This document shows, piece after piece, positions 12,984 to 50,146 of a stretch of 64,000 nt of DNA. The stretch covers positions 5,680 to 69,679 of the forward strand of contig PEAP01000006.1 in assembly GCA_002753665.1 (NCBI GenBank). The letters run 5' to 3'. Position 1 is the stretch's first letter. Every line of letters begins with the position of its first letter. The stretch is from Magnetococcales bacterium DC0425bin3 (GTDB taxonomy: Bacteria; Pseudomonadota; Magnetococcia; Magnetococcales; DC0425bin3). A program made the translations under genes and the position numbers. The notes beneath the pieces were generated by a model. The model was not told where the DNA came from, searched no databases, and saw only the letters and a program-made list of their open reading frames with translations.

Positions 12984-14162
12984 ATGTCTTATCGCAAAGC
13001 GTCACTGCCGGCGTTGCCGCTGGCCCTGGCCGGTTGGCTGGTCGTTGCGGCTCCGGCCGCCGCGGCCGGCATTCCCGTGGCCAATCAGCCGACGGTCACC
13101 GTCGAGGCGGGGGCCATCGGCGCCACCACCACCCTGGGTGGGACGGTGGTGCCGTTCCGGGAGGTCTCCTTTTCCGCCCAACTGCCAGGCCGGGTGGAGT
13201 ATCTGGCCGGGGTGGAAGGGGACTGGGTCAAGAAGGGCAACGTGCTGGTGGCCCTGGATGATGATGACCTGCTGGCCAAACGCAACCAGATTCTGGCGGG
13301 CATGGAGACCGCCATGGCCGGCCTGCGCAATGCCCGGGTGCAGTTCGTCCGGCAGCAATACACCGGCCAGCCCCAGGGCATGAGCGGCATGGGCATGCCC
13401 AGCATGATGGACGAGGCGCTCACCCGCCCCATGGAAAACATGTTCAAGGGCGGGTCCAACGATGTCAATCGCCGGGCCCAGCTCTACAACCAGGGGGTGC
13501 AGATCGACCAGGCCCGCTGGCAGTACCAACAAGCCCGGGCCCAGCTCCAGGAATTGGACGCCCATATCCGGGATGCCCGCTCCATCGCGCCCTTCGACGG
13601 GGTGATCGTGCGCAAGACCGTGGAAGTGGGCGACACGGTGCAGCCCGGCATGCCCCTGCTGGCCTTCGCCGATACCGTCCACCTGCAGATCAAGGTGGAT
13701 GTGCCCGCACGCCTGATGCCCGGCATCAAGAAGGGCATGTCCATTCCGGCCAAGCTGGACGTGGGGGATACCCACATCGAGACCAAGGTCGCCCAGGTCT
13801 TCCCCATGGCCGACGCCCAACGCCACACCGTGACCATCAAGCTGGATCTGCCCCAGAACGCCCCCGGCGGACCGGGCATGTACGCGGAAGTGGTCATTCC
13901 CGACATCACCACCCCGGTGGAAAACCTGCCGGTGATTCCCAAGTCGGCGGTGCGCTGGAACGGCAGTCTGCCCGGAGTCTATGTGGTCACCGGCAAGGAC
14001 GAAGCGGAGCTGCGCATGGTTCGTCTGGGTGGGTTCGTCGACGGCAACAGCGTCAGCGTCCTCTCCGGCCTGAAGACCGGGGAGCGGATCCTGGCCGCGC
14101 CCCCCAACAACCAGACCGGCGACAGCAACGATAGCGGCGGCGGCCGTCCCCAGGCCGAGTGA
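12984..14162 (+). CDS. RND efflux periplasmic adaptor (membrane fusion protein, HlyD family)
   Basis: N-terminal signal/anchor (LPALPLALAGWLVVAAPAAAAG). Central alpha-hairpin segment (RRAQLYNQGVQIDQARWQYQQARAQLQELDAHI) flanked by beta-rich regions. Precedes the RND gene. ATG 12966 is an alternative start. Confidence 0.75.
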   Translation: MSYRKASLPALPLALAGWLVVAAPAAAAGIPVANQPTVTVEAGAIGATTTLGGTVVPFREVSFSAQLPGRVEYLAGVEGDWVKKGNVLVALDDDDLLAKRNQILAGMETAMAGLRNARVQFVRQQYTGQPQGMSGMGMPSMMDEALTRPMENMFKGGSNDVNRRAQLYNQGVQIDQARWQYQQARAQLQELDAHIRDARSIAPFDGVIVRKTVEVGDTVQPGMPLLAFADTVHLQIKVDVPARLMPGIKKGMSIPAKLDVGDTHIETKVAQVFPMADAQRHTVTIKLDLPQNAPGGPGMYAEVVIPDITTPVENLPVIPKSAVRWNGSLPGVYVVTGKDEAELRMVRLGGFVDGNSVSVLSGLKTGERILAAPPNNQTGDSNDSGGGRPQAE

Positions 14163-14244
14163 TACCACCCGGAATCCGCCCCCCCCCGGCCCCGCGTGCC
14201 GGGGGGGGGGCGGTCACAGGCTCTCATCGACAGGTTTCTGACCC

Positions 14245-17200
14245 ATGTCCGAGCAACCCAAACAACCCGGGACGCCATCCAATCCCGATCTGGCTCAATA
14301 CTCCCCCCACAAGAATCTGGGAGTGGCGGGCGGCATGGCCAAGGCGTTCATCCACTCGCCCTTGTCGCCATTGTTCCTGTTCGCCTGCTTGGCCATGGGG
14401 TTGATGGGCCTGTTGCTGACCCCGCGCCAGGAGGATCCGCAGATCTCGGTGCCCATGGTGGACATTTTCGTCCGCTATCCCGGCGCCGTCAGCCAGCAGG
14501 TGGCCACGCTGGTGACGGATCCCCTGGAACGGATCATGAGCGAAATCCACGGCGTCAAACATGTCTACTCCGCCTCCATGCGCGGCGAGGCCATGGTGAC
14601 CGTGGAGTTCGACGTGGGCGAGAACCTGGAGGACTCCATCGTCAAGCTGCGGGACAAGATCATGTCCAACATGGACAAGGTCCCGCCCGGGGTGGAAACG
14701 CCCCTGATCAAGCCCATGGCGGTGGACGACGTGCCGATGGTGACCCTCACCCTCTGGTCCCACGATCTCAACGACTCGGAACTGCGGGTGCTGTCCCTGG
14801 ACGTGCTGCAACGCCTGAAGGAAGTGGAGAACACCAGCAAGGGTTTCGTGGTGGGTGGCCGGGCCGAGCAGTTGCGGGTGGACGTGATGCCCGAACGGCT
14901 CTCGGGTTTCAAGATCAGCATGGATCAGATCGCCCAGACCATCAAGACCGCCAACAGCGTCCAGGGCGTCGGCGATGTGGAGTCCGGCGACGTGGGCCGC
15001 AAGGTCTATACCGGCAAATGGCTGCAGAACGCCCAGGATCTGCGCCGGCTGGTGTTGAGTACCCACCAGGGCGTGCCGGTCTACCTGGGGGACGTGGCCA
15101 AGGTGGAATCCGCCCCCGAGGAAACCAGCCAGATGGTCGCCTATTACAGTGGCCCTGCCTATCGGGACAACACCCCCCAGGCCAACGGCGCCCCGGCGGT
15201 GACCATCGCCATCGCCAAGAAGATGGGCAGCAACGGCGTCTCGGTGGCCAACGATCTGCTGGACAAGGTGGAGGAACTCAAGGGCCGTCTGATTCCCAGC
15301 AACGTCTATGTGGCGGTCACCCGCAACTATGGCGAGACCGCCAACGAAAAGGTCAACGAACTGCTCTTCAAGCTGTGCATCGCTACCCTGGCGGTGACCG
15401 TGCTGGTGTGGTTCTTCCTGGGACTGCGGCCGGCGGTGGTCACCCTGATCGTGATTCCCGTGGTGATCCTGATGACGGTGTTCGCCGCCTGGATCATGGG
15501 GTACACCATCGACCGGGTGAGCCTGTTCGCCCTGATCTTTTCCATCGGCATCCTGGTGGACGACGCCATCGTGGTGGTGGAAAACATCTACCGCCGCTGG
15601 CTGCTGGAGGACAACTGCTGCCACATCATCTCCGTGGACGCGGTGCGGGAGGTTGGCAACCCCACCATCCTGGCCACCTTCACGGTCATCGCCGCCCTGC
15701 TGCCCATGGGCTTCGTGCGCGGCATGATGGGTCCCTACATGGAACCGATTCCCGCCCTGGGATCGGTGGCCATGCTGTTCTCCCTGTTCGCCGCCTTCAT
15801 CTTCACCCCCTGGCTCACCCAGTTGATCAAGCCCAGCCTGCGCTCCCTGCATATCCATTCGGAAAAGGAGCATGCCCAGGCGGAGCGCATGGAGCGGTTC
15901 TACCGCTGGATCATTCCCCAGTTGATCCATTCCAAGGCCAAGGGGTTCGGTTTTCTGTTCGGCATGGTCTTCATCTTCTTCCTCTGCATGGTGATGTTCT
16001 ATACCCAGAGCGTGGCGGTGAAGATCATGCCCCTGGACAACAAGCCCGAGTTCAACGTGGTGGTCAACATGTCCGAGGGCACTGCCATGCCCAAGACCGC
16101 CAATCTGGTCCAGCAGCTGACCAACGAACTCCGCAACAAGATTCCGGAGATCATCGCCCTCCAGACCTATGTGGCCACCGCCTCCCCGTTCAACTTCAAC
16201 GGCATGGTGCGTCACTACTATCTGCGGCGCGAGCCCTGGCAGGGTGACATCCAGGTGCAGCTGGTCCACAAGAGCGAGCGGGAGCGGACCAGCCATGAAC
16301 TGGCCATTCTGGCCCGCCATATTCTCACCCCCATCGCCCGACAGGCCGGCGCCCGGATCGAGGTGGTGGAAATGCCCCCGGGACCGCCGGTGCTGCAGTC
16401 GGTGGTGGCCGAGGTGACCGGCCCCACGGCCCAGATCCGCCATCAGGTGGCCCAACAGATGACCCGGTTCTTCGAGGATGCCCACAACATCGTCGATGAG
16501 GACAACTACATCCAGGAACCGTTCGAGGTCTGGCGGTTCGAGGTGGACACCGAAAAAGCCGTGCGGCGGGGCGTTTCGGTGGATGCCATCAACCGCAACC
16601 TGGGGATGGCCATGGGCGGGGCGCGTCTGGGCGACATCAAGCGCGGTCGGGTGCTGGAGCCGACCTACATCGTCATCCAGGTGCCCCTCAACGTGCGCGC
16701 CCAGATCACCAGCCTGGCCGAACTGCCCGTCATGTCCACCACCGGGACCACCATCCCCCTGGGCGAGCTGGGGCGGTTTGTCCGGGAACCCCAGGATCCC
16801 ATCATCTTCCACAAGGATCTGCGCCCGGTGGAATTCGTCACCGGCGAGGTGGAAGGGGTTCTGGACGCTCCCATCTATGGCATGATGGAAGTGGAAAAGA
16901 TGCTGGAGAACTACACCACCCCGGATGGGGTGAAGATGTCCGGCTACTACATGGGGCCGCCGGAAACCACCACCCGCTCCGGCTTCGAGTGGACCGGAGA
17001 ATGGACCGTCACCTACGAAACCTTCCGGGACATGGGCATGGCCTTCGGAGTGGCCCTGATCCTCATCTACATGTTGGTGGTGTGGGAATTCGGCAACTTC
17101 GTCCTGCCGGCCATCATCATGGCCCCCATTCCCCTGACCCTGATGGGCATCATCCCGGGCCATTGGCTGCTGGACGCCAAGTTCACCGCCACTTCCATGA

Positions 17201-18090
17201 TCGGCTTCATCGCCCTGGCCGGGATCATCGTGCGCAATTCCATTCTGCTGGTGGATTTTTCCCAGCAGGAGGTCCTCAAGGGCGTGCCCCTGATGGACGC
17301 GGTGATCATGTCCTGCAAGGCCCGGACCCGGCCCATTCTCATCACCGCCCTGGCCCTGGTGGCCGGGTCGTCGGTGATCCTCTCCGACTTCATCTTCATG
17401 GGCATGGCCATCAGCCTGCTGTTCGGCGTGCTGATCTCCACCCTGCTGACTCTGCTTGTGATTCCCCTGGGCTGCATCAGCGCCAAGAACGCCTTCCGCT
17501 ATCCAACGCGGCAGGAGGCCGAGGAGATGGGCTATCCGGTGGCGCCGGGTGTCCTGGCCGCTCCCGCCATGCCGAGGGACAACGCCTGCAGCGACAGTGC
17601 CTGCGCCGCCCCGGAGATCGAAGAAGCCTCGCCGCCCGCGCCAGCGGCACAGTCGGCCGAGCTCCCGCCGGCACAGTCGGTCGAGCCCTCGCCGGCACAG
17701 TCGGTCGAATCCGTGACCCAGCCGGAACCACCTGCCGGTTCCGCCCTGCCGGAAGCGCCACAGACAGCGCCACCCCAGGCAGAGGTGCGGCAGCCGGACT
17801 CCGATCCCGGTCAGGCCACGCCTCCCGAGCCACCGGCGGCTCCCGCAACCGCCTTGGAATTGCTGGAGGCGGTGCATCAGGCCATTGAGCCTGCCCCGGT
17901 TCTGGAAACCGCCCAACCTGATTCCAGGACAGAGACCGCCTCCCTGGATCAGGACGAGGAAACCCGGGATGACCTCCCGGAACAGATCACCTCCGAGGCC
18001 CCGGCTGGAGGGGACAAAGGCAGCGGCAAAGCCGTCGCTCCCCGCCGGGGCATCCGTCTCAAACCCCCGTCAGGCAAGGGGCCGTCATGA
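14245..18090 (+). CDS. RND (AcrB/HAE-type) efflux transporter with ~200-aa disordered P/A/E/Q-rich C-terminal tail
   Basis: About 1040-aa core with the two-fold 1+5 TM / large periplasmic loop RND architecture. After ...LLVIPLGCISAKNAF (about nt 17500) comes a low-complexity acidic tail ending in a basic patch (KGSGKAVAPRRGIRLKPPSGKGPS). Confidence 0.9.
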   Translation: MSEQPKQPGTPSNPDLAQYSPHKNLGVAGGMAKAFIHSPLSPLFLFACLAMGLMGLLLTPRQEDPQISVPMVDIFVRYPGAVSQQVATLVTDPLERIMSEIHGVKHVYSASMRGEAMVTVEFDVGENLEDSIVKLRDKIMSNMDKVPPGVETPLIKPMAVDDVPMVTLTLWSHDLNDSELRVLSLDVLQRLKEVENTSKGFVVGGRAEQLRVDVMPERLSGFKISMDQIAQTIKTANSVQGVGDVESGDVGRKVYTGKWLQNAQDLRRLVLSTHQGVPVYLGDVAKVESAPEETSQMVAYYSGPAYRDNTPQANGAPAVTIAIAKKMGSNGVSVANDLLDKVEELKGRLIPSNVYVAVTRNYGETANEKVNELLFKLCIATLAVTVLVWFFLGLRPAVVTLIVIPVVILMTVFAAWIMGYTIDRVSLFALIFSIGILVDDAIVVVENIYRRWLLEDNCCHIISVDAVREVGNPTILATFTVIAALLPMGFVRGMMGPYMEPIPALGSVAMLFSLFAAFIFTPWLTQLIKPSLRSLHIHSEKEHAQAERMERFYRWIIPQLIHSKAKGFGFLFGMVFIFFLCMVMFYTQSVAVKIMPLDNKPEFNVVVNMSEGTAMPKTANLVQQLTNELRNKIPEIIALQTYVATASPFNFNGMVRHYYLRREPWQGDIQVQLVHKSERERTSHELAILARHILTPIARQAGARIEVVEMPPGPPVLQSVVAEVTGPTAQIRHQVAQQMTRFFEDAHNIVDEDNYIQEPFEVWRFEVDTEKAVRRGVSVDAINRNLGMAMGGARLGDIKRGRVLEPTYIVIQVPLNVRAQITSLAELPVMSTTGTTIPLGELGRFVREPQDPIIFHKDLRPVEFVTGEVEGVLDAPIYGMMEVEKMLENYTTPDGVKMSGYYMGPPETTTRSGFEWTGEWTVTYETFRDMGMAFGVALILIYMLVVWEFGNFVLPAIIMAPIPLTLMGIIPGHWLLDAKFTATSMIGFIALAGIIVRNSILLVDFSQQEVLKGVPLMDAVIMSCKARTRPILITALALVAGSSVILSDFIFMGMAISLLFGVLISTLLTLLVIPLGCISAKNAFRYPTRQEAEEMGYPVAPGVLAAPAMPRDNACSDSACAAPEIEEASPPAPAAQSAELPPAQSVEPSPAQSVESVTQPEPPAGSALPEAPQTAPPQAEVRQPDSDPGQATPPEPPAAPATALELLEAVHQAIEPAPVLETAQPDSRTETASLDQDEETRDDLPEQITSEAPAGGDKGSGKAVAPRRGIRLKPPSGKGPS
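17647..17718 (+). repeat. 3 x 24-bp in-frame tandem repeat in the RND tail
   Basis: GCACAGTCGGCCGAGCTCCCGCCG / GCACAGTCGGTCGAGCCCTCGCCG / GCACAGTCGGTCGAATCCGTGACC, encoding AQSAELPP-AQSVEPSP-AQSVESVT. Confidence 0.85.
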
Positions 18091-19112
18091 TCACAGCCGC
18101 CATCCGATGGCCCATCCCGGTATCGCCTGCGCTGACTGCCACCGCCCTGGTTCTGACTCTGGGGTTGGGAGTCTCCGCCCAGGCCTTCGAGGGCAACTCT
18201 CCCCAGGAGTGGAACCCCGGATTCAGCGGAGCCAATGGCCCGGAACAGACCCCCATGCCGCCCGGCGGCCCCGGCGAGGGGTTTTCCGGACCCGGCGCCC
18301 CCTCCGGCGGATCCTACGGTCCGCCTGCCGAGGGCATCGCACCCGGCGGCGGACCGCCCGGTCAGGAGCCGATGTCGGGCCATGACCGTCCGCCAGTCGA
18401 TCATTGGAGCGGTTCCGGTGGCCCGCAGCCCTCCGGACCTTCCGGCTCTCCCTACCGGTGGGACAACCCGCCCCCGGGCATGGGATCGGATTGGACTCCC
18501 GGCGCCGAGTCACCCGGCGATGGCAGGCCCGCACCGACCGATGGGGTCACCGCTCCAAAAGGTTACCCAGACCCCCGCGGCCCCTATTCCGATGGCAATG
18601 CAGCCCCACCCTATCAGGGACCGATGGGCTATCCGGGCCAAATGCCCCAGATGCCATGGACGCGGCAGTCCCCCTGGAACGGACCGGCCCCCCATCCCGG
18701 CGCCATGGGCAACATGCCGGATCCCGGCGCCGGTGCGTGGGGCGGCCCCCCCACCCAACAGGCTCCCGAGGGCGCCGGGCGTGGCTATTATCCACCCCAG
18801 CAGGGTGGCGGACCGCCCACCGGCACCTACCCGCCGCAGATGGTTCCTTATCAGGGGGGCGGTATGGGATCCTATGGACCGCCCAGCCAGGGCAATTATG
18901 GCGGTGGACCTCCACTGGGCGGTGGGGGACGACCCCAGCCGTCCTCTCAGCCCCCCCCGTGGAATGGCGGCAACTGGCAGTCCCAGCCGCCGCCGTCGCC
19001 ACCCATGGGTGGCGGCTATCCACCATGGTCCACCCCCCCTGCCTATCAAGGTCGTTCTCCGGCGGACCAGGGCAGTCAGACAGGTCCCGGCTATCGGCAG
19101 CCCGGGTATTGA
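18087..19112 (+). CDS. secreted P/G-rich intrinsically disordered protein (341 aa)
   Basis: ATG overlaps the RND stop (ATGA at 18087-18090). Signal peptide ...LVLTLGLGVSAQA|FE. The rest is almost entirely P/G/S/Q/Y/W low complexity with no recognisable domain. Confidence 0.7.
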   Translation: MITAAIRWPIPVSPALTATALVLTLGLGVSAQAFEGNSPQEWNPGFSGANGPEQTPMPPGGPGEGFSGPGAPSGGSYGPPAEGIAPGGGPPGQEPMSGHDRPPVDHWSGSGGPQPSGPSGSPYRWDNPPPGMGSDWTPGAESPGDGRPAPTDGVTAPKGYPDPRGPYSDGNAAPPYQGPMGYPGQMPQMPWTRQSPWNGPAPHPGAMGNMPDPGAGAWGGPPTQQAPEGAGRGYYPPQQGGGPPTGTYPPQMVPYQGGGMGSYGPPSQGNYGGGPPLGGGGRPQPSSQPPPWNGGNWQSQPPPSPPMGGGYPPWSTPPAYQGRSPADQGSQTGPGYRQPGY

Positions 19113-19312: not shown

Positions 19313-19993
19313 ATGGCATTGTCCAGTTGCATGCACCTTCATTGTGCCCTGTTCCTCGGGATGCTCCTGACCGGAAACGCGGTGCATGCCGCTGTCATGG
19401 AGCCCGCTGCCGGCCCCGGGCCGGTCCTGCCCCTGCTGCTTGCCCAGAATGGTGGGACCAACGATCATCTGTGGAACTGGTATGGCGACAATTATTCCCG
19501 TCAGCCAGCGCCAGTCACCCCGCAGGAACAGGCCCTTCCCTCCTATGGGACTCCGTTCCGTCCCAGTGGCAAAATCCCTGCCGGCGATCAGACCCGACCC
19601 TGGGGTGAGGTGCCGCCCGACTATCAACCCAATCCCTATTACGGAGACCAGCGGCGGCCCTCGGACAGCGGAGCAGACAACCGCAACCGTTTCGACTCCC
19701 GTCCGCGTCCCGACCCGCGGTATTCCGAGGAACGCTTCCGGTCCATGAACCCGCCCCCGGGCCAGTACTCCGACTTCGACCCCCCCGCTCCACCGTCCTC
19801 CGGCTCCGAACGGGGCACCGACGATTATTTTCGCCGACGCCAGGTTGAGGAACAACCCTTGCATGCCCCGCCGCCACCCGGCAATGGCTATCCCGCCACA
19901 GTGCCCTGGGGATACCGCCCTCCCGACAGTTATGACTCGTGGTCGTCCGAGGGTCAGCCCTTCTGGGGCACCCCCTCTTATTGGTCCAGATAG
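19313..19993 (+). CDS. secreted P/R/D/Y-rich low-complexity protein (226 aa)
   Basis: Signal peptide MALSSCMHLHCALFLGMLLTGNAVHA. Mature part is rich in P, R, D, Y and W (e.g. DYQPNPYYGDQRRPSDSG..., ...GYRPPDSYDSWSSEGQPFWGTPSYWSR). TTG 19298 is an alternative start. Confidence 0.6.
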   Translation: MALSSCMHLHCALFLGMLLTGNAVHAAVMEPAAGPGPVLPLLLAQNGGTNDHLWNWYGDNYSRQPAPVTPQEQALPSYGTPFRPSGKIPAGDQTRPWGEVPPDYQPNPYYGDQRRPSDSGADNRNRFDSRPRPDPRYSEERFRSMNPPPGQYSDFDPPAPPSSGSERGTDDYFRRRQVEEQPLHAPPPPGNGYPATVPWGYRPPDSYDSWSSEGQPFWGTPSYWSR

Positions 19994-20001
19994 GAAGGTT
20001 C

Positions 20002-20661
20002 ATGGCTGCATCCGCGGGATTCAATCTCGAACGGGCATGGAAGCTTGGCGCCGCCACCCTGATCCTTCTGGCCGGAATCCCGGTCAGCCTGCCCGTTCCG
20101 GCCCGGGGAGACCAACAGCAGCCGGCCTTTTCCGCCCGGGTGGTCCGCAGCCATCCCTCGGATCGGGAGAAGAACTCCCAGGGCCACATGTATGTGGGAC
20201 CCCTGGGCATCCGCACCGAATCCACCGTGGGCGGTGAGGCCATTCATGTCATCTTTCAACGCCAACCGCCGAAGGCTCTGGTCCTGTTTCCGTCCCGCAA
20301 GGAGTACATGGAACAACCCGGAGCCGACAGCACCCCGCCGCCGCTCCCCGACCATCCGGACAGCCCCTGCCGCACCCATGATTCCTACCGCTGCCTCAAA
20401 AAGGGCCTGACCACCGTGGGCGGCCGTGACACCGAACATTGGGTGGTGACGGTCATCCCGCCCGGCGAGAAACCCCGGGATTCCCAGATGTGGATCGACC
20501 GTCGTCTGGGCATTGCCATTCGGGAAGCCTATCCGGACGGCTCTCTCGTGGAGCTGACCGACATCCGGGAGGCTCCCCAGGACCGGCAACTCTTCACCCT
20601 GCCGGAGGGGTATCGCCTGGTCACCCTGCCGGAGTCCGGCGCTCCTCCCGCGCCACCCTGA
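20002..20661 (+). CDS. hypothetical exported globular protein (possibly LolA-like/DUF4412-like fold)
   Basis: AGGAAGG RBS before ATG 20002. Signal-like N-terminus ...LGAATLILLAGIPVSLPVPARG. The beta-rich, non-repetitive mature part is the only ordinary-composition exported protein in this block. The fold assignment is a guess. Confidence 0.5.
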   Translation: MAASAGFNLERAWKLGAATLILLAGIPVSLPVPARGDQQQPAFSARVVRSHPSDREKNSQGHMYVGPLGIRTESTVGGEAIHVIFQRQPPKALVLFPSRKEYMEQPGADSTPPPLPDHPDSPCRTHDSYRCLKKGLTTVGGRDTEHWVVTVIPPGEKPRDSQMWIDRRLGIAIREAYPDGSLVELTDIREAPQDRQLFTLPEGYRLVTLPESGAPPAPP

Positions 20662-21154: not shown

Positions 21155-21763
21155 ATGAACGTGCGACGTTTCGGACACATCGTCTCCCTCGGCACCTTGG
21201 TCACAATGACCGGTTGGTCTTGCCATGCGACGGCGGGGGAGCCTTGGCAACAAACCATGGAGGCCGCCCAGCGGGCCGCTGCGAAACAGGGCTTGAGCGG
21301 CGATTCCCAGATGGGCCAACGCTTCGGACGTTTCATGAAGTCCTTCATGGACGAAATGGAATCCACCGACCCCGGAGTCGGCCACCCCCCCGGGAATCCG
21401 GAGGTGCCTCCAGGAATGCCGGACAATCGACCCCGTACCGAGGCCCGCCGGGCCCCCGAAGGGATATCCGGCCCCGCACGGATCCCGCAACCGCTTCCGC
21501 CCGGGCCGGGATACTGGGAGCCCACCCCCTGGGACAGCTCCCCCGGCCTTTGGGGTCCTGGAGGATGGAGTGCCTACGATTCCCCCGGCCGTCCCTATGC
21601 CGGAGCGGAAGGATATGGGTGGGGCGGTTCAGCCTACCGGGTTCCAAACCAGGGCTGGCCCGCCTGGAGCCCGTCGGGGTCCTGGGGCAATTATCGGGAT
21701 CCGCTGTTCGACAGCCCCGCGGGGCTGGGAACGGGTTGGGTTCCCCAGGGGTGGGATTGGTGA
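21155..21763 (+). CDS. secreted W/P/G-rich low-complexity protein (202 aa)
   Basis: Signal-like MNVRRFGHIVSLGTLVTMTGWSCHATA. C-terminal half is GYWEPTPWDSSPGLWGPGGWSAYDSPGRPYAGAEGYGWGGSAYRVPNQGWPAWSPSGSWGNY...GWVPQGWDW. The start is uncertain (ORF opens at 21026). Confidence 0.55.
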   Translation: MNVRRFGHIVSLGTLVTMTGWSCHATAGEPWQQTMEAAQRAAAKQGLSGDSQMGQRFGRFMKSFMDEMESTDPGVGHPPGNPEVPPGMPDNRPRTEARRAPEGISGPARIPQPLPPGPGYWEPTPWDSSPGLWGPGGWSAYDSPGRPYAGAEGYGWGGSAYRVPNQGWPAWSPSGSWGNYRDPLFDSPAGLGTGWVPQGWDW

Positions 21764-21908: not shown

Positions 21909-22172
21909 ATGAAAAAGACCGCGCGCTTGTTGGCCATTGCCGCCCTTCTGGGCACTGCCATGACCCTCGCCGCCCCCGCGGATGCCTGGTGGGGACCCGG
22001 CTGGGGCAATGGCAACGGTTGGGGCAATGGCACCTTCAGCATGAACATGGGTGGCTGGGGCAATGGCTATGGCAATGGCTACGGCTATCCCGGCTACGGC
22101 GGCTGGGGCGGACCCGGCTATGGCGGCTGGGGCGGACCCGGCTACGGCGGTTGGGGCGGACCCTGGTGGTGA
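21909..22172 (+). CDS. small secreted G/W/Y-repeat protein 1 (87 aa), sulfur-globule-envelope-protein-like composition
   Basis: GAGGAG RBS. Sec signal MKKTARLLAIAALLGTAMTLAAPADA. Mature WWGPGWGNGNGWGNG...GYGGWGGPGYGGWGGPGYGGWGGPWW. Confidence 0.8.
   Translation: MKKTARLLAIAALLGTAMTLAAPADAWWGPGWGNGNGWGNGTFSMNMGGWGNGYGNGYGYPGYGGWGGPGYGGWGGPGYGGWGGPWW
22092..22163 (+). repeat. 3 x 24-bp coding tandem repeat (GYGGWGGP unit)
   Basis: GGCTA(C/T)GGCGG(C/T)TGGGGCGGACCC x3. The same unit recurs in the two downstream paralogs. Confidence 0.9.
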
Positions 22173-22236
22173 CGGTTGACCACCGCAATTCGTGCCATCC
22201 TCCTTTTTATCTGCAATGACGACGGAGATACAGAAA

Positions 22237-22506
22237 ATGAAAAAGTCCCTCGGTGTTCTCGCCATCGCGGCCCTGCTGGGTGGAGCCGCCATCCTCGCGA
22301 CCAATGACGCCTCCGCCTGGTGGGGACCCGGTTGGGGCAACGGCAACGGTTGGGGCAACGGCAACCTGAGCTTCAGCATGGGTGGCTGGGGCAACGGCTG
22401 GGGCAATGGCTACGGCTATCCCGGCTACGGCGGTTGGGGCGGACCCGGCTACGGCGGCTGGGGCGGACCCGGCTACGGCGGCTGGGGTGGTCCCTGGGGT
22501 TGGTAG
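22237..22506 (+). CDS. small secreted G/W/Y-repeat protein 2 (89 aa)
   Basis: GGAGA RBS. Signal MKKSLGVLAIAALLGGAAILATNDASA. Mature region is nearly identical in layout to paralog 1. Confidence 0.8.
   Translation: MKKSLGVLAIAALLGGAAILATNDASAWWGPGWGNGNGWGNGNLSFSMGGWGNGWGNGYGYPGYGGWGGPGYGGWGGPGYGGWGGPWGW
22423..22494 (+). repeat. 3 x 24-bp coding tandem repeat (GYGGWGGP unit)
   Basis: Same unit as 22092-22163. Confidence 0.9.
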
Positions 22507-22516
22507 TCAAACAGGC

Positions 22517-22538
22517 AGGGGGGGCTCACGCCCCCCTT
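22517..22538 (+). terminator. short G/C hairpin after paralog 2
   Basis: GGGGGG-CTCACG-CCCCCC followed by TT only. Weak U-tract. Confidence 0.3.
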
Positions 22539-22642
22539 GACTGCAATGCCAACTGGCATGGTTGGGGGAATTGTCTCCCACCCGCGTGCCGCACCCACTT
22601 CCGGCAACGGCTGCGTGCGGCAACTGCGCAAAGGGTTTCAAC

Positions 22643-23020
22643 ATGAAAAAGACGCTCGGCATGCTGGCCATCGCCACCCTTTTGGGTGGTGCAGCCATGG
22701 TGACCTCGAATGAAGCTTCGGCCTGGTGGGGCGGTGGTCCCGGCTACTGGGGCGGACCCGGCTACGGCGGTTGGGGCGGACCCGGCTACGGCGGTTGGGG
22801 TGGCGGGCCTGGCTACGGCGGTTGGGGCGGACCCGGCTACGGCGGTTGGGGTGGCGGGCCTGGCTATTGGGGCGGCGGTGGTGGCCCCTATGGCTATGGC
22901 GGCGGACCCTATGGCTATGGCGGCGGGCCTGGCTACTGGGGCGGTGGTGGACCCAACGGCGCTCCTCCAGCGACGGCTCCCACCGGGGAGAAAGAAACCA
23001 AAACCGACTCCGGTAATTGA
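22643..23020 (+). CDS. small secreted G/W/Y-repeat protein 3 (125 aa) with charged C-terminal tail
   Basis: Signal MKKTLGMLAIATLLGGAAMVTSNEASA. Mature WWGGGPGYWGGPGYGGWGGPGYGGWGGGPGYGGWGG...GGGPYGYGGGPYGYGGGPGYWGGGG, then NGAPPATAPTGEKETKTDSGN. Confidence 0.8.
   Translation: MKKTLGMLAIATLLGGAAMVTSNEASAWWGGGPGYWGGPGYGGWGGPGYGGWGGGPGYGGWGGPGYGGWGGGPGYWGGGGGPYGYGGGPYGYGGGPGYWGGGGPNGAPPATAPTGEKETKTDSGN
22742..22940 (+). repeat. array of 18/24/27-bp coding repeats (GYWGGP / GYGGWGGP / GYGGWGGGP / GPYGYGG units)
   Basis: Direct reading of 22742-22861 shows alternating 24- and 27-bp units. More degenerate units follow. Confidence 0.8.
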
Positions 23021-23040: not shown

Positions 23041-23070
23041 GGGGGGCGGTTGCGGCCGCCTCCCGTTTTG
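23041..23070 (+). terminator. rho-independent terminator after the G/W/Y gene triplet
   Basis: GGGGGGCGG / CCGCCTCCC stem (one G-U pair), loop TTGCGG, then GTTTTG. Confidence 0.65.
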
Positions 23071-23235: not shown

Positions 23236-23904
23236 ATGATTACCCTGATCGGCAACCTGAAAGGCGGTTGCGGCAAAAGCACCGTGACCTTCAATCTGGC
23301 GGTTTGGCTGGCCAAGCGGAAGCGGCAGGTGGTTACCTTCGATCTGGATCCCCAGGCCACCCTGAGCGATGTGGTGGATGTGCGCCGGGAAGAGGGTGTG
23401 ACTCCCGCCATCACCGTGTTTCGCCCGGAAAGCGACCCCGGCAAGGTCTTCAAGGAACATTCCGCGGGCGAGGTTCTGGTGGATGTCGGCGCTTCCAACC
23501 TCTGGGCCATGCGGCAGGCCATCGCCATGGCCGACCGGGTGTTGATTCCGGTGCCGCCCAGTCAGGCGGATGTCTGGTCCACCCAGCGGTTCCTGAACAT
23601 CGTCGAGGAAACCGTCGCCGGCAAGAAACGCCCCGAGACCCTGGTCTTCGTCAACCGTGCCGATACCCACCCGGGATTGACGGAATCCGACGAAACCGAA
23701 CAGGCCCTGGCCGCCCTGTCCGGGGTGGCGATCCTGGACGCCCGTATTTCCCAAAGAACCATCTACCGCCGTTCCTTCAGCGAGGGCCGGGCTGTCTTCG
23801 AACTGTCCCCCTCCAGCAAGGCCGCGGAAGAGTTCATCAATCTGGCCAAGGCCCTGTATCCGGACCTGGCCCAGCCCGCCAAAAGCGGCAACAAGAAAAA
23901 GTGA
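23236..23904 (+). CDS. orphan ParA/MinD-family P-loop ATPase
   Basis: Deviant Walker A GNLKGGCGKST, then FDLDPQ and VLVDVG motifs. 222 aa with a short basic C-terminal tail (AKSGNKKK). No parB, parS or min genes nearby. Confidence 0.85.
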   Translation: MITLIGNLKGGCGKSTVTFNLAVWLAKRKRQVVTFDLDPQATLSDVVDVRREEGVTPAITVFRPESDPGKVFKEHSAGEVLVDVGASNLWAMRQAIAMADRVLIPVPPSQADVWSTQRFLNIVEETVAGKKRPETLVFVNRADTHPGLTESDETEQALAALSGVAILDARISQRTIYRRSFSEGRAVFELSPSSKAAEEFINLAKALYPDLAQPAKSGNKKK

Positions 23905-23919: not shown

Positions 23920-24612
23920 ATGACCGATCGACCGGTTCAACATCCCGGCGCGGATGCCGACGGTGGCGGAAACCCGTCCTCCCCCATGCCCCAGCGCGGC
24001 GTCAACATCATCCCGCCCGTCGGCACCCACAAGGAGTGCGGCAACTGCTCGGCCATGGTGCTGGACCAGTTCGCCAAGAGTTTCGACAAAAGCGCCCGCC
24101 GCTGGGAACTGGTGGTCTACCCGTCCCTGTTCGCCTTCATCATCCTGGCCATGTACGGATTTTTCCTGATCTACAGCCTCACCCAGGACATCCGGATCAT
24201 GTCCCACTCCATCGACCCGCAGATGGGGCGCAACATGGGCTCGTTGTCTTCCAACATCGGCAGTTTGTCCAACAATATCGAGTTGATGTCCAATTATCTC
24301 GAATATATCAGCGACAACATGGAAACCATGTCGGTGGACATGCAGACCATGGCCGAGAACATCGATACCATGACCGACAGCGTTTCCGGCATGAGCGGCA
24401 ATGTCAAGCAGATGGCCGGCACCATGACCGAAATGTCCGGGCGGGTCAGTGAAATGGCCGTCAAGCTTGATACCCTGGGACCCATGACCGCCAACGTGGC
24501 CATCATGTCCCAGGCCATGCGCGTCATCACCGGGTCCATGAACCGCATGGGATACGACATGAACAACGCGGCCCGGCCCATGAGCTTCATCAACCGGTTC
24601 ATGCCCTGGTAG
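23920..24612 (+). CDS. bitopic membrane protein with periplasmic Met-rich 18-heptad coiled coil ('methionine zipper')
   Basis: N-terminal ~65 aa carry an ECGNC (CxxC) motif and a K/R cluster. One TM follows (VVYPSLFAFIILAMYGFFLIYSL). From residue 102 there are 18 uninterrupted 7-residue repeats beginning M (L/I/V in a few). Ends ...RFMPW. Confidence 0.7.
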   Translation: MTDRPVQHPGADADGGGNPSSPMPQRGVNIIPPVGTHKECGNCSAMVLDQFAKSFDKSARRWELVVYPSLFAFIILAMYGFFLIYSLTQDIRIMSHSIDPQMGRNMGSLSSNIGSLSNNIELMSNYLEYISDNMETMSVDMQTMAENIDTMTDSVSGMSGNVKQMAGTMTEMSGRVSEMAVKLDTLGPMTANVAIMSQAMRVITGSMNRMGYDMNNAARPMSFINRFMPW

Positions 24613-24675: not shown

Positions 24676-25392
24676 ATGTCCGCGACACGCAAAACCAGTT
24701 CCATCCTCTCCGCCGCCGTCCTGACCCTGGCCATGACCTTTTCCGCCGCCGCCATGGCCGAGGACAAGGCCGCCACCGTCCCGGTCACGCCGCCCACCAG
24801 CCCCCAGGATCTGCAAGAACGCATCCAGGACCGGGTCGGCAATTACTGGCAGAGCATCCAGAGCAGCCACGATGCCTGGCAGCGCCAGCATACCCTCGGA
24901 CAGACCGCCACCGAGCGGGACCGGGAAACCGGTCAGTCGGCCCGGGAAATGGCCGAACAGACCCGCATGCTGGATTGGCAGAACCAGCAGCAGGCCTGGA
25001 CCAACGCCGCCCAGCAGCTCCAGAACACCCAGCAGCGCCAGCAGGAGAACAATCTGAAACTCCAGGAAGCCCTGATGGCCTACCGCCACGAACAGGAGCG
25101 CATCAACCTGGAACATCGCAAGGCGATGGTGAGCAACACCACCGCCTACCAGCAGGGCAGCCTCAACAACGCCGTCATGCGCCGTCAGAATAATCTGATG
25201 ACCAGCACCTCCGCGGTCAACAACGATCTGTGGGCCAGCCGGCAGGCCATGATGAACCACATGGCCCGTCAGCGCGCCTGGCTGCAGCAGCGCACCGGCG
25301 CTCCCGTGAACGAAGCCATTCTGCCTCCCGTCGCTCCCGGCAGTGAACCCGCGGCCCCTCCGGCGGCGGAAGCAGCCAAGCCGGCGCAATAA
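24676..25392 (+). CDS. secreted Q/N-rich helical protein (238 aa)
   Basis: GGGAGA RBS. Signal MSATRKTSSILSAAVLTLAMTFSAAAMA. Mature part is Q/N/R/E-rich and helix-prone (WQNQQQAWTNAAQQLQNTQQRQQENNLKLQEAL...), with a P/A tail. Confidence 0.65.
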   Translation: MSATRKTSSILSAAVLTLAMTFSAAAMAEDKAATVPVTPPTSPQDLQERIQDRVGNYWQSIQSSHDAWQRQHTLGQTATERDRETGQSAREMAEQTRMLDWQNQQQAWTNAAQQLQNTQQRQQENNLKLQEALMAYRHEQERINLEHRKAMVSNTTAYQQGSLNNAVMRRQNNLMTSTSAVNNDLWASRQAMMNHMARQRAWLQQRTGAPVNEAILPPVAPGSEPAAPPAAEAAKPAQ

Positions 25393-25515: not shown

Positions 25516-25539
25516 AGCGAGTCGTCCAGATCGAATCCA

Positions 25540-25569
25540 GGGCGGATTGCCATGCAATCCGCCCTTTTT
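25540..25569 (+). terminator. strong rho-independent terminator closing the + strand block
   Basis: 11-bp perfect stem GGGCGGATTGC / GCAATCCGCCC, loop CAT, then TTTTT. Confidence 0.8.
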
Positions 25570-38394: not shown

Positions 38395-40293
38395 TCAGGC
38401 GCGGCGCAGAAACCCTTCCAGCATCAGCAACGCCCACAGGGCAGCAGCGCAGTCACGCCGGCCACTCATATGGGCCTCCACCAGCTCCCGGATGACCCGC
38501 GGCTCCAGCCAGCCGGTCTCCCCCAGCGTTCCGTTCAGCAGCGACCGCTCCACCCTGGTCCGCAACGGCCCCCGCAACCAGGCCGCCAGGGGGATGGAAA
38601 ATCCTCGCTTGGGTCGGCGCAGCAGGTCGGCGGGCAGCAGGGACGCCAACCCCTCCTTGAAGATGACCTTCCCCTCCCCTCCCCGCAGCTTCCAGTGCGC
38701 GGGCAGACGGGCGGTCCATTCCACGAACCGATGGTCCAGCAGTGGCACGCGCACCTCCAGGCCATGGGCCATGCTGGCGCGGTCCACCTTCACCAGCACC
38801 CGGCCGGCCAGAAAGGTCTTGAGATCGAGATACTGCAATTGCGCCAGCGGCGGAGCCTCCGCCACCCTCTGCTGGTGGCGATGCAGGTGTTCCACGGCCC
38901 GATAGCCCTGGCGCTCCCGCTCCAGGGCCGGGGTGCCGAGGCGGCGGCGCAGGGGTTCGTCCAGCACTGCCATACCATGGGCCCAGCCTTCCACGGCCTC
39001 CCGGGCCAGGGACTGGAAAGTGCTTTTGGCCCGCAGGAAGCGGGGGGCCCAGTCCAGCTTGGGATACAGCCGCCCCAGGGTCCCGAACAGGGGGCCCCGC
39101 ACCCCCTGGGGCAGCCAGGCCCGCACCCGCTGTTCGGCCATGAACAGGGCATAACGGCGATAACCGGCCAGGATTTCGTCCCCCCCATCGCCGGACAGCA
39201 CCACCTTGACCTGCCGCCGGGCCGTCCGGCACACCAGCCAGGTGGGCAGGGCGGAGGAATCGGCAAAGGGTTCGCCATACAGGTCCACCAGGGTCTCCAA
39301 CAGGTCGAAATGCGCGGCTTCGACCTGCTCCAGCCGGTGGGTCACCCCAAACCGTCGGGCCACCTGGGCGGCCTGGGGGCTCTCGTCGAAGGCGGCCTCC
39401 CGAAAGGCCACGGTGCAGGCGGTGATGGCCCGGGGATCCGCAACCGCCCGGCTCATCAGCGCCACCACCGCGGCGGAATCCACCCCCCCGGACAGAAACG
39501 CCCCCACCGGCACATCGGCCACCAGATGGGCAGTCACCGCGGCAGACAGCCGTTCCATCAGCTCGGCGGCGGCGGCGGCCATCGACGGCCAGGAATCTGG
39601 GGTGGCAGGAAAACTCCAATCCCAGTAGGGCTCCGGGGCGGGCAGCGGCCGTCCCCATTCGACCAGCAACCGGTGGCCTGGCTCCAGCTTGTGGACCCCC
39701 TGGTAGATGGTGCGGGGATCGGGCAGATAGCCGAAGGCCAGGTAATCCTCCAACCCCAGGGGATCCAGGCTGCGGGGACAGCCCGGGTGGGCCAGCAACC
39801 CCGGCAGCTCCGAGGCGAACAGCAGCCAGCCGTCGCCGGTCTGGGTGTAATACAGCGGCTTGATGCCCAACCGGTCCCGGGCCAGAAACAAGGATTGGCG
39901 ATTGCGATCCCACACCGCCAGGGCGAACATGCCCTGCAGGCGGGTCACGCAGTCCGGCCCCCAGCTCTCCCAGGCATGCACGATCACTTCCGTATCGCTG
40001 CGGGTGGCGAAGCGGTGGCCCAGGGCCTCCAGCTCGGCGGTCAGGCTCTGGAAATTGTAGATCTCGCCGTTGAAGACCACCCACACGGCGCCATCCTCGT
40101 TGCCCAGGGGCTGGACGCCCCCCTCCAGGTCGATGATGGCCAGCCGCCGGTGGCCCAGCCCCACCCCCGGTTCCAGACGATGGCCCTGCCCGTCCGGCCC
40201 CCGGTGGGCCAGACGGGTGGTCATGGCCAGTAGCGGGGCCGGCTCCGGCTGCCGCCCTCCCCGCCGATCAACCAGGCCGGCGATGCCGCACAT
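38395..40293 (-). CDS. asparagine synthase (glutamine-hydrolysing) family amidotransferase, XrtA/PEP-CTERM-locus type
   Basis: N-terminal MCGIAG (Ntn Cys), PP-loop SGGVDSAAV, 632 aa. Last gene of the minus-strand EPS operon, as for exosortase-A-associated amidotransferase 1. Confidence 0.85.
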   Translation of the reverse strand: MCGIAGLVDRRGGRQPEPAPLLAMTTRLAHRGPDGQGHRLEPGVGLGHRRLAIIDLEGGVQPLGNEDGAVWVVFNGEIYNFQSLTAELEALGHRFATRSDTEVIVHAWESWGPDCVTRLQGMFALAVWDRNRQSLFLARDRLGIKPLYYTQTGDGWLLFASELPGLLAHPGCPRSLDPLGLEDYLAFGYLPDPRTIYQGVHKLEPGHRLLVEWGRPLPAPEPYWDWSFPATPDSWPSMAAAAAELMERLSAAVTAHLVADVPVGAFLSGGVDSAAVVALMSRAVADPRAITACTVAFREAAFDESPQAAQVARRFGVTHRLEQVEAAHFDLLETLVDLYGEPFADSSALPTWLVCRTARRQVKVVLSGDGGDEILAGYRRYALFMAEQRVRAWLPQGVRGPLFGTLGRLYPKLDWAPRFLRAKSTFQSLAREAVEGWAHGMAVLDEPLRRRLGTPALERERQGYRAVEHLHRHQQRVAEAPPLAQLQYLDLKTFLAGRVLVKVDRASMAHGLEVRVPLLDHRFVEWTARLPAHWKLRGGEGKVIFKEGLASLLPADLLRRPKRGFSIPLAAWLRGPLRTRVERSLLNGTLGETGWLEPRVIRELVEAHMSGRRDCAAALWALLMLEGFLRRA

Positions 40294-40305
40294 GGCGCCC
40301 CCGTT

Positions 40306-41520
40306 TCATCGGCCGGTCTCCCCCCGCACCAGTTCGTCGTACAGGCGGTCGTAGTGGGCCACCATCTCCTCCAGGGAAAACAGCTCCTCCACCCGCTGCC
40401 GACCCCGAGCCCCCTGCCGGCGGGCCAGGGCCGGATCGGCGACATAACCAGCCATGGCCACCGCCAGGGCATCGGGATCACCCGGCGGCACCAGGGTCCC
40501 GGTCTCCCCCTCCACCACCAGATCCGGCACCCCACCCACCCGGGTGGCCACCACCGCCAGGCCCGCCGCCATGGCCTCCAGGACCGTCAACGGCATCCCT
40601 TCGGCCAGGGACGGCAGCACGAACAGGTGGGCCCGGGCCAACAGTCCGGGCACATCCTCCTGGTAACCGGCCAGACGGACGGATTCTCTCACTTGCAGCT
40701 CCCCCGCCAGGGCCGTCAGCTCCCCCTCCAGCAGGCCACCACCCACCAGCAGCAGACGGCAGGGTGGCTGCCCAGGCCGGGAATTCTGGAGCAGGCGGGC
40801 AAAGGCCCGCAACAGGTTGGCCTGATCCTTCACCGGCCAGAATCGGCCCACGGTGATGATCAGGAAGGCCCCGGGGGGCAGGAAGCCGGGCCAGGGCAGC
40901 GCCGCGTCCACCGCCTCCGGTCGGGGCCGGAACCGGGTCAGGTCCACCCCGTTGCCGATGAAGCAGACCTTGTGGGCCGGGATGGCCACCCGTTGCACCA
41001 GCCACCGTTCCAGGTCCCGGGACACCGCCACGAAGCGGCTGACCAGGGGATTCAACAGGCGGCGCAGGAGAATGTAGGTCCGGTTTTCCCCGTCCAGGTC
41101 GTGCCAGTCCCGGCCATGTTCGGCCTGGATGCGGACCGGCACCCCGGCCAGGAACGCCGGCAGGGCCGCCTCCAGGGCGGCGATGTTGCAGCCATGGACC
41201 ACCTGGGGCCGCAGGCGGCGCAGCAGGCGGAACAGCCGCCACCAGACCCGCCAATCCTGGCCTGCCCGTTTGTTCAGGGCATGAAAGGCCACCCCGGCCC
41301 GCTGGATGCGGTGCCTGAAGCCAGTACAGCGGGTCAGGCAGATGACCGTGTGACGGTAGCGGTCCTGGGGCAGCCGGTCCACCAAGTGGGCCAGCACCGT
41401 CTCCAGACCGCCCACATCCAGCCGATAAACGACATGGGCGACATGAATTTGGCTGGATGGGGGATGCCTCCCTCCACCCTCCCCCGATGCAAGTCGCTCC
41501 GCGACTTCCAGGGTAATCAC
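40306..41520 (-). CDS. GT4 glycosyltransferase (PEP-CTERM/EpsH1-associated sugar transferase 'stp2'-like); start unresolved
   Basis: Conserved N-terminus HVVYRLDVGGLE and C-terminal EGMPLTVLEAMAAGLAVVATRVGGVPDLV. No in-frame ATG is near the conserved N-terminus. The only canonical in-frame start is GTG 41520, overlapping the upstream stop (GTGA). That start places repeat copy G inside the ORF. Confidence 0.75.
   Translation of the reverse strand: MITLEVAERLASGEGGGRHPPSSQIHVAHVVYRLDVGGLETVLAHLVDRLPQDRYRHTVICLTRCTGFRHRIQRAGVAFHALNKRAGQDWRVWWRLFRLLRRLRPQVVHGCNIAALEAALPAFLAGVPVRIQAEHGRDWHDLDGENRTYILLRRLLNPLVSRFVAVSRDLERWLVQRVAIPAHKVCFIGNGVDLTRFRPRPEAVDAALPWPGFLPPGAFLIITVGRFWPVKDQANLLRAFARLLQNSRPGQPPCRLLLVGGGLLEGELTALAGELQVRESVRLAGYQEDVPGLLARAHLFVLPSLAEGMPLTVLEAMAAGLAVVATRVGGVPDLVVEGETGTLVPPGDPDALAVAMAGYVADPALARRQGARGRQRVEELFSLEEMVAHYDRLYDELVRGETGR
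41449..41517 (+). repeat. two-hairpin ~70-bp repeat, copy G, wedged between two glycosyltransferase genes
   Basis: TTTGGCTGGATGGGGGATGCCTCCCTCCACCCTCCCCCGATGCAAGTCGC-TCC-GCGACTTCCAGGGTAATC. Confidence 0.8.
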
Positions 41521-42716
41521 GCCAGGGCTCCCGCCAAGTGGCGGTCCACCCGGGCCAGGTTGGTTGCCCAATCGTAGCGGTCGATCACACAGCGCCGGCC
41601 GAGGGTTCCGGCGTCGCCGGGATCGTCCAGCAGGGCCAGCCCCCGTTTCGCCAGGGCAACCGGATCGTCGGCCACCCACCGCTCCAGCCCGGGGCAGAGC
41701 CGCACCCCTTCCATCGCCTTGCCGGTGGCCAGCACCGGTTTGGCCATGGCCATCGCCTCCAGCACCTTGTTCTGGATGCCCTGCCCCAGCCGCATGGGGG
41801 CCACCGCCAGGGCGGCATGGGCCAGGTAGGGACGCACGTCCGGCACCCGCCCGGTGACCAGGATACCCGGATCCCGGACCAGGGCGGTCACCGCCGGGGC
41901 GGGCCGGCTGCCGACCACCGCCAACCGGACCCCGGGCCGGACCGCCCGGATTCTGGGCAGCACCGCCGCGGCGAACCAGGTCACCGCCTCGACGTTGGGC
42001 CAGTAATCCATGGCCCCGGTGAACACCACCACCGGCCCGCCGGGGGGATAGGGATCCGGATAGTCCAACAGGGGCGAGAAATAGGCCGCGTCCACCCCAT
42101 TGTCGTAATGGTCCACCCGCCCGGCCAGCTCCGGGGCCAGGCTGCAGAACAGATCGGCCTCGGCCCGGCTGACGAACAGGGCGGCGTCGAACTGGCGCAC
42201 CACCTCCTGCTCGAAGGCCAGCAGCCGGGTGGCTTCCCGGCGGTAGATCCAGGCCAGCGGCCCCCGCTGCCGCCGGGCATACTGGGCCCATTTCTGGGAG
42301 TCGGCATCAACGAAATCCATGACCCGCCGCTGCCGGATCGGCCCCAGCACATAGGGCGCCATGCCGGAACTGTAGACCACCACCAGCTGCACCTCCTCTC
42401 GGGCCAGGATCCCCCGAACCCAACGGGCCAGCTCCGTCCGGTACAGATAGGGCAGGGTCAGGGGCTGGCCGGTGAGCAGGCCGGTTAACCCGCGCCACCG
42501 GGCCAAGCGGGGATCCAGCTCCAGAATCCGGCAGTCGCCCCCGGCCATCGCCCGCACCGTCTCGCCATGAACCTGGTCGGCGGGATCATCGATGAAAGTC
42601 CCCAAGTGAACGCGAAACCGTTGCGCCACATGGCGGAACAGCCGGTAAGAGCGGATCTTGTCCCCCTTGTCCGGGGGGTATGGGATGCGGTGGGACAGGA
42701 ACAGGCAGTCGGCCAT
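41517..42716 (-). CDS. GT4 glycosyltransferase (PEP-CTERM/EpsH1-associated sugar transferase 'stp1'-like)
   Basis: N-terminus MADCLFLSHRIPYPPDKGDKIRSYRLFRHVA is characteristic of this family. The 5' part of ORF 41517..43709 overlaps the FemAB-like gene and was rejected. Confidence 0.8.
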   Translation of the reverse strand: MADCLFLSHRIPYPPDKGDKIRSYRLFRHVAQRFRVHLGTFIDDPADQVHGETVRAMAGGDCRILELDPRLARWRGLTGLLTGQPLTLPYLYRTELARWVRGILAREEVQLVVVYSSGMAPYVLGPIRQRRVMDFVDADSQKWAQYARRQRGPLAWIYRREATRLLAFEQEVVRQFDAALFVSRAEADLFCSLAPELAGRVDHYDNGVDAAYFSPLLDYPDPYPPGGPVVVFTGAMDYWPNVEAVTWFAAAVLPRIRAVRPGVRLAVVGSRPAPAVTALVRDPGILVTGRVPDVRPYLAHAALAVAPMRLGQGIQNKVLEAMAMAKPVLATGKAMEGVRLCPGLERWVADDPVALAKRGLALLDDPGDAGTLGRRCVIDRYDWATNLARVDRHLAGALA

Positions 42717-42721
42717 GGCCC

Positions 42722-45757: not shown

Positions 45758-45780
45758 GGGAACAATCGCGGATGACCGGT

Positions 45781-46821: not shown

Positions 46822-46875
46822 CGTTCCCTCCTCGTCCTTGCGTCAGTCCATGCGTTCCAATCGCGCCACCGCTGC

Positions 46876-50071: not shown

Positions 50072-50146
50072 GAATCAGACGGCATGCGACTGCCTACCCC
50101 TTGTCCGACCGGAGCGGCGATCCCCCTCGCCGGCATGTCGATCATT

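Follow-up and report, generated by a model that had tools for sequence, protein, structure and literature searches.

Three tandem genes of a Magnetococcales bacterium likely encode tryptophan-rich envelope proteins of sulfur globules

Introduction

Do three small, tryptophan-rich secreted proteins that are encoded side by side in the genome of Magnetococcales bacterium DC0425bin3 form the envelope of sulfur globules? The genes in question, here called sgp1, sgp2 and sgp3, lie on contig PEAP01000006.1 (assembly GCA_002753665.1) within a 64-kb stretch (contig positions 5,680 to 69,679) that was analysed as a whole, that we refer to as the window, and to which all coordinates below belong unless another locus is named. 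An initial annotation of this DNA had placed their products, from amino acid composition, beside the sulfur globule proteins (Sgp) of Allochromatium vinosum. The analysis described here makes it likely that they do: the products of the three genes would be structural proteins of the envelope around periplasmic sulfur globules, and the host a sulfur-oxidising magnetotactic coccus.

Sulfur globules rank among the classic inclusions of bacteria. To our knowledge, experiments on the Sgp proteins of their envelope have been carried out almost solely in one purple sulfur bacterium, and we know of essentially no factors that nucleate, size or position the globules.

That the host stores sulfur is a premise taken from published work on the order Magnetococcales. 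Many magnetotactic cocci contain sulfur globules, and freshwater members encode reverse Dsr, FccAB and SoxYZ (PMC6783814), and in magnetotactic sulfur oxidisers intracellular globules are regarded as typical (PMC10386293).

Results

The three neighbouring open reading frames of 87, 89 and 125 amino acids (aa) that were initially reported are present in the sequence, as follows:

sgp1, 21909-22172, + strand: 87-aa precursor of the SgpA/B type, with a 26-aa signal peptide and an uncharged mature chain of 61 aa (6.3 kDa)
sgp2, 22237-22506, + strand: 89-aa precursor of the SgpA/B type, with a mature chain of 6.3 kDa
sgp3, 22643-23020, + strand: 125-aa precursor resembling SgpC and proteins annotated as 'CV3', with a mature chain of 9.2 kDa

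The gene calls made by NCBI agree, as the same three genes are annotated on contig JADFWZ010000016.1 (assembly GCA_015233965.1), which is identical to the window across the 20 kb compared. Signal peptides were assigned by inspection as MKKTARLLAIAALLGTAMTLAAPADA for sgp1, MKKSLGVLAIAALLGGAAILATNDASA for sgp2 and MKKTLGMLAIATLLGGAAMVTSNEASA for sgp3, each followed by WWG. All three leaders consist of an n-region that begins with MKK, a hydrophobic core (best 12-residue Kyte-Doolittle hydropathy 2.0-2.4) and AxA immediately before the WWG, and are thus predicted to be cleavable Sec signals of the kind that targets Sgp proteins to the periplasm. The initial description of near-identical Sec signals was right as to their type and too strong as to their likeness, because the regions that encode them share 75-80% nucleotide identity over aligned positions, with gaps. 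Similarly, a ribosome-binding site of its own had been claimed for each gene; GGAG precedes sgp1 and sgp2, and sgp3 is preceded only by a weak AAGGG.

The composition of the mature chains bore out their description as repeats of G, W, Y, N and P (47-51% Gly). Gly makes up 47-48% and Trp 16-18% of mature sgp1 and sgp2, neither of which has a charged residue, and mature sgp3, at 51% Gly, consists of pure GYGGWGGP/GPYGYGG repeats, lacks an FSxNM core, and adds a hydrophilic tail at its C-terminus (PPATAPTGEKETKTDSGN). Their masses are in keeping with a family of small, repeat-rich Gly/aromatic proteins of about 8-11 kDa when mature, sgp1 and sgp2 being somewhat smaller than the A. vinosum Sgp proteins.

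The relationship of sgp1 and sgp2 to the Sgp family, at first guessed from composition, was supported by alignment. A profile of mature chains only (sgp1 and sgp2 of the window plus their two counterparts from a second genome, L003) was aligned by hhalign with 13 proteins positive for the Pfam SGP domain (PF17228), and matched them with 97% probability (E 7e-11, score 58.6, 31 columns), relative to a best score of 21 among 20 residue shuffles and 20 column shuffles; with the signal peptides kept, the probability was 98.4%. In a local phmmer comparison with 227 collected proteins, the top match of both sgp1 and sgp2 was the PF17228 protein P0012 (54-58 bits), and a database search with sgp1 recovered P0007, which has a true SGP domain, as well as a protein of Magnetococcus massalia MO-1. 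Right behind the cleavage site, the two window proteins and the SGP-domain proteins have in common an ordered, non-repetitive core, WWG..GNG/GDG units..[FLM]S[FM][NS]M..GNGYGY, that is followed by aromatic-Gly-Pro repeats; this core is present in sgp1 (WWGPGWGNGNGWGNGTFSMNMGGWGNGYGNGYGY) and sgp2, and is missing from sgp3. From these results, along with a sub-threshold Pfam match of sgp1, we conclude that both proteins belong to the SgpA/B lineage as divergent members below the reach of the Pfam threshold. Those relatives from the profile searches that have a named source belong mostly to sulfur-storing thiotrophs.

Comparison with SgpA and SgpB (CV1 and CV2; PF17228) revealed both likenesses and differences. 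The Sec signal ending in AxA, the WWG that follows it, the small size, and the order of GNG/GDG units, [F/M]S[F/M]NM, GNGYGY and aromatic-Gly-Pro repeats are shared, and the existence of two closely similar paralogues in the window is reminiscent of the interchangeable SgpA and SgpB of A. vinosum (PMC10386293). However, sgp1 and sgp2 carry Trp in place of most Tyr, and their mature chain is shorter, uncharged, and without an Ala/Pro-rich tail. The genes also differ in arrangement, being tandem in the window, whereas those of A. vinosum have distant locus numbers (Alvin_1905, Alvin_0358 and Alvin_1325); the sgp relatives checked outside the Magnetococcales islands are solitary genes.

The Trp content of these proteins had been called unusual, and it proved to be so: sgp1 and sgp2 stand at the top of 215 relatives, whose median is 9% W and 15% Y. 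Other Magnetococcales Sgp-like proteins are likewise W-rich and Y-poor, and Trp-richness is a trait of this lineage. In M. massalia MO-1, which is of the same order, CRH07102.1 (named 'Sulfur globule protein CV1' in UniRef and already annotated as 'similar to sulfur globule protein') shares the signal peptide, a start in WWGPGWGN and W-rich repeats with the window proteins, and differs from them in being W/N-rich rather than W/G-rich. The Sgp-like proteins of two lower-GC genomes (L006, 8026-8988; L007, 8154-8988) are also Trp/Asn-rich, with up to 33% Asn, and not Trp/Gly-rich. It appears from these sequences that composition follows genome GC while the spacing of Trp stays.

The evidence for sgp3 is of a different kind. 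A profile that contained sgp3 retrieved 697 proteins, and those with a name were 'sulfur globule protein CV3/CV1' of Ca. Kentrum; further matches, labelled hypothetical, came from Lamellibrachia symbionts, Thiodiazotropha and Thiosymbion (tubeworm and clam symbionts). This profile included a CV3-annotated sequence, and its matches are pure low-complexity repeats. With sgp3 alone, phmmer found collected relatives of the CV3-retrieving set at up to 66 bits, again as low-complexity matches. In its layout sgp3 resembles CV3-annotated proteins of thiotrophic Gammaproteobacteria (such as P0101 and MDJ0864060.1), with which it shares the signal peptide, repeats of G, W, Y and P only, with no FSFNM core, and a C-terminal Ala/Pro/Thr/Lys tail. 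The likeness of sgp3 to SgpC (CV3) was judged through these CV3-annotated proteins, a type that has no curated model.

Tandem Repeats Finder located a coding repeat array in each of the three genes:

Array in sgp1, 22089-22163, + strand: 24-bp coding repeat, 3.1 copies
Array in sgp2, 22420-22494, + strand: 24-bp coding repeat, 3.1 copies
Array in sgp3, 22748-22866, + strand: coding repeat with a 24-bp period (4.2 copies) or a 51-bp period (2.3 copies)

The 24-mer that had been singled out as reused within and between the paralogues is indeed so, as it has 8 matches (at no more than 3 mismatches), relative to 0 matches in 100 dinucleotide-preserving shuffles (0 expected). This reuse had been read as a sign of recent duplication or gene conversion, and here the two parts of the claim fared differently. 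The gene set is old and its triplication not recent, because it is found again in further Magnetococcales genomes, with GC contents of 47-66%: the second genome (L003/L005, 61% GC) has an equivalent trio, in which two genes bear the core and the third has a tail and no core, and there are two sgp genes each in L006 (56% GC) and L007 (47% GC). The repeat units, on the other hand, are homogenised within a genome. PGYGGWG occurs 3, 3 and 4 times in the window paralogues; unlike these, the L003 paralogues have GWGGGPY as their common unit, the low-GC genomes have GWNNGWNN, and the 24-bp DNA unit is missing from every related locus. That the units are specific to each genome yet common to its paralogues indicates concerted evolution, in which slippage or gene conversion between paralogues would keep the repeats alike within each genome.

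Nucleotide identity was also considered as proof of gene conversion, since sgp1 and sgp2 are 91% identical in their mature regions, 75% in the signal-peptide regions and about 60% in the flanks. We dropped this argument as weak, because a single codon serves Trp and GGC is strongly favoured for Gly, and orthologous mature regions also reach 78-86%. The low identity of the flanks and signal-peptide regions is a further point against a recent triplication.

Genes upstream of sgp1 and hairpins within and after the sgp genes were as follows:

RND efflux pair, 12984-18090, + strand: periplasmic adaptor and 1281-aa permease
p341, 18087-19112, + strand: secreted Pro/Gly-rich low-complexity protein of 341 aa, 23% Pro
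p226, 19313-19993, + strand: secreted Pro/Gly-rich low-complexity protein of 226 aa, 17% Pro
p219, 20002-20661, + strand: secreted protein, weakly DUF4412-like
orfU, 21155-21763, + strand: conserved gene not called by NCBI, for a secreted protein of about 200 aa
Hairpin after sgp2, 22518-22537, + strand: strong G+C hairpin with no T tract (fold of 22500-22560, z-score -3.85)
Hairpin after sgp3, 23041-23064, + strand: terminator-like, followed by GTTTTG; likely end of the sgp transcription unit

Because of the hairpin after sgp2 and the terminator-like hairpin after sgp3, the sgp genes are probably one unit that is separate from the genes downstream.

The surroundings of the sgp genes are conserved among the related loci, all of which come from Magnetococcales metagenome-assembled genomes. 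The product of orfU begins with a signal peptide, contains the motif GRxFGxFMxSF and has a C-terminus rich in W, G, P and Y that ends in W.W, and its gene stands directly 5' of the sgp genes in 4 genomes (the window, L003, L006 and L007; 28-36% identity). Likewise, p219 is kept 5' of the sgp genes in L003, L006 and L007, and genes like p341 and p226, neither of which had a family match, hold the same position in L006 and L007. The RND permease, which ends in a disordered Pro/Ala/Glu/Gln-rich tail of about 200 aa, is immediately 5' of the secreted-protein genes in those two genomes too. Both retain the same gene order: RND pump, P/G-rich proteins, p219, orfU, sgp, ParA and tm230. The presence of this pump beside the sgp genes recalls A. 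vinosum, in which sgpD adjoins a gene for a hydrophobe/amphiphile exporter (PMC10386293).

Downstream of the sgp genes are the following features:

ParA/ParF-type ATPase, 23236-23904, + strand: 222 aa, Walker A KGGCGKS
tm230, 23920-24612, + strand: single-pass membrane protein of 230 aa, 11% Met
cc238, 24676-25392, + strand: secreted Q/A-rich protein, conserved in L003/L005 only
Terminator-like site after cc238, 25539-25565, + strand

The assignment of the ATPase to the ParA family is based on the deviant Walker A motif KGGxxK[ST], seen here as GNLKGGCGKST, together with family profiles (Pfam CbiA, 4e-15; AAA_31, 1e-12) and a match to ParF in the PDB (4dzz, E 2e-11); the NCBIfam model ParA_partition gave 138.5 bits, under its equivalog cut-off of 180. 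In tm230, a disordered N-terminus with positive charges precedes the transmembrane segment (approximately residues 62-88), and Met-rich predicted helices follow (100-184 and 187-209); this Met-rich helical domain would be periplasmic. When AlphaFold2 was applied to tm230 alone, it returned long helices only, with a predicted local distance difference test score (pLDDT) of 66 and a predicted template modelling score of 0.25.

The ParA gene directly precedes tm230 in every Magnetococcales-like context (8 contexts), and the sgp genes are directly 5' of this pair in five lineages (the window, L003/L005, L006, L007 and L018), though not in L008 and L024. tm230 is part of a wider unnamed family with 376 cluster representatives, and the distant relatives that we examined had neither ParA nor sgp genes as neighbours. 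A metagenome scan with the tm230 alignment yielded one short locus only. In L019 (2368-7438), a relative that is 47% identical to tm230 and has no ParA stands in a sulfur-related context: on its 5' side are a rhodanese-domain regulator of the ArsR/BigR-like type and a methyltransferase, and on its 3' side an SQR-like flavoprotein, a DsrE-like protein and an RND/MMPL-type transporter (the last judged by eye); this is a single case and a hint only.

The product of cc238 looks helical from its sequence. It was weighed as a candidate for the role of SgpD (Alvin_2515), a secreted, globule-associated protein of predicted coiled-coil character, and for kinship with the helical C-terminal extensions that some SGP-domain proteins carry. 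A phmmer comparison with the collected proteins, which did not include SgpD itself, gave nothing at E<1, and neither idea gained support.

Discussion

Several results weigh against the proposal that the three genes encode Sgp proteins. The Pfam SGP model gave 17.5 bits (E 0.0075) for sgp1, which does not reach its gathering threshold of 26.7 bits, had no match in sgp2 or sgp3, and gave none or 13 bits for the equivalent proteins of other Magnetococcales genomes, relative to 49.8 bits for P0007 and 59.2 bits for P0012 as positive controls; no NCBIfam model matches any of the three proteins. AlphaFold2 found no fold for sgp1 (28-sequence alignment, pLDDT 49.7). Two of the profile searches, including the one with sgp3, held known Sgp-annotated proteins and are therefore partly circular. 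With chains of such low complexity, convergence in composition could explain some of the similarity, and in sgp3 the whole of it; homology and convergence are not separable for sgp3. Lastly, the 64-kb window contains no dsr, sox or sqr genes, and a search of it for sulfur-oxidation and magnetosome genes found just housekeeping, transporter and polysaccharide genes.

These points would be accommodated if the three products were generic Gly/aromatic-rich proteins of the periplasm or envelope unrelated to sulfur, such as the coat of a phosphorus-rich granule or an envelope structure, that resemble Sgp proteins through convergent composition. The unreached Pfam and NCBIfam thresholds, the lack of a curated family for proteins of the sgp3 type, the large phosphorus-rich inclusions that are also found in magnetotactic cocci (PMC6783814), and the missing sulfur-oxidation genes of the window all suit this explanation. 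Against it stand the likeness of sgp1 and sgp2 to PF17228 in an ordered, non-repetitive motif, which survives the shuffling controls, the preponderance of sulfur-storing thiotrophs among the organism-named relatives, and the position of a distant tm230 relative next to SQR-like flavoprotein and DsrE-like genes, and we hold the explanation to be improbable. Small size, secretion, high Gly content and multiple tandem copies would equally be expected of glycine-rich antimicrobial or signalling peptides that are repeat-rich by chance. However, the leaders are of the Sec and not the double-glycine type, the adjacent genes include none for immunity, a dedicated peptidase or an ABC exporter, and the mature chains bear no charge, unlike the cationic or amphipathic chains that are usual in such peptides; along with the homology to SGP-domain proteins, this makes a peptide of that kind very improbable indeed. 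It must also be asked whether these are genes at all, as a 66% G+C genome has many spurious overlapping open reading frames, and the opposite strand and other frames are open here. That they are chance reading frames over G+C-rich repetitive DNA is effectively refuted by conservation: genomes that range from 47 to 66% G+C keep the signal peptides, the start codons and the order of the genes, and the low-GC versions swap Gly for Asn yet keep the architecture. The GC content at third codon positions (0.77-0.80 in sgp1 and sgp2, 0.66 in sgp3) versus first positions (0.57-0.66) also speaks against chance.

If the genes do encode sulfur globule envelope proteins, their products might act as follows. 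Each precursor would be exported by Sec, and cleavage after AxA would leave a mature chain with WWG at its N-terminus. These chains, made of Gly/Trp/Tyr/Asn repeats without a stable fold of their own and uncharged in the case of sgp1 and sgp2, would then assemble as a thin protein coat at the interface between sulfur and periplasm, as suggested by their homology with SgpA, SgpB and SgpC of A. vinosum. By analogy with the interchangeable SgpA/SgpB type of that species (PMC10386293), sgp1 and sgp2 may be a redundant pair, and the core-less, tailed sgp3 may correspond to the SgpC/'CV3' type; in A. vinosum, SgpC is involved in globule expansion (PMC10386293). All three would be expressed from the single transcription unit that the terminator-like hairpin closes, within an island that is specific to Magnetococcales and probably encodes other factors associated with globules.

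The ParA gene and tm230 invite a bolder proposal, which we regard as possible though rather unlikely: the sgp genes would be the structural core of a dedicated globule-organelle island, in which cytoplasmic ParA and membrane-bound tm230 couple the cytoplasm to the periplasmic globule so as to nucleate, space or segregate globules, with orfU, the Pro/Gly-rich proteins and the RND pump as biogenesis factors. ParA-type ATPases that position cargo include the McdA-like systems of carboxysomes. As in those systems and in the ParF system of plasmids, a KGGxGKS Walker A motif and a constant small partner gene (tm230) are found here. The partner differs in being a membrane protein, the bulk of which would be periplasmic, rather than a cytoplasmic DNA- or cargo-binding adaptor. 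In the literature searched, no paper connected ParA with sulfur globules or reported clustered sgp genes in Magnetococcales. If the link is true, ParA-type positioning would be extended to periplasmic cargo and would act across the inner membrane.

Sgp proteins as a kind are already known, and the MO-1 homologue had been noticed by annotators. What is new is a Trp-rich, charge-free clade under the Pfam threshold, its tandem arrangement, the conserved island with ParA, and the unannotated orfU, none of which is described in the literature searched. A whole order of magnetotactic cocci would thus carry a Trp-rich, uncharged Sgp clade that is missed by the current Pfam model and annotated as 'hypothetical'. 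The conserved trait of these proteins would be the spacing of aromatic residues and Gly and not Tyr itself, which bears on how the coat contacts sulfur. Moreover, the clustering of the sgp genes with secreted proteins, an RND pump and the ParA/membrane protein pair provides a short list of candidates for globule biogenesis and positioning.

Other features of the window

A cluster for making and exporting polysaccharide occupies 38395-55868, most of it on the - strand, and includes genes for asparagine synthase, glycosyltransferases, UDP-GlcNAc 2-epimerase, a MinD/ParA-like ATPase of the tyrosine-kinase type, a sugar transferase and a Wzt/Wzm-type ABC transporter. By coordinates, approximately 7.6 kb of the window (56372-64000), which may represent a longer or otherwise different assembly version, would extend beyond position 1 of JADFWZ010000016.1 (62,050 bp), and an open reading frame at 56184-57599 spans the end of that contig implied by this alignment.

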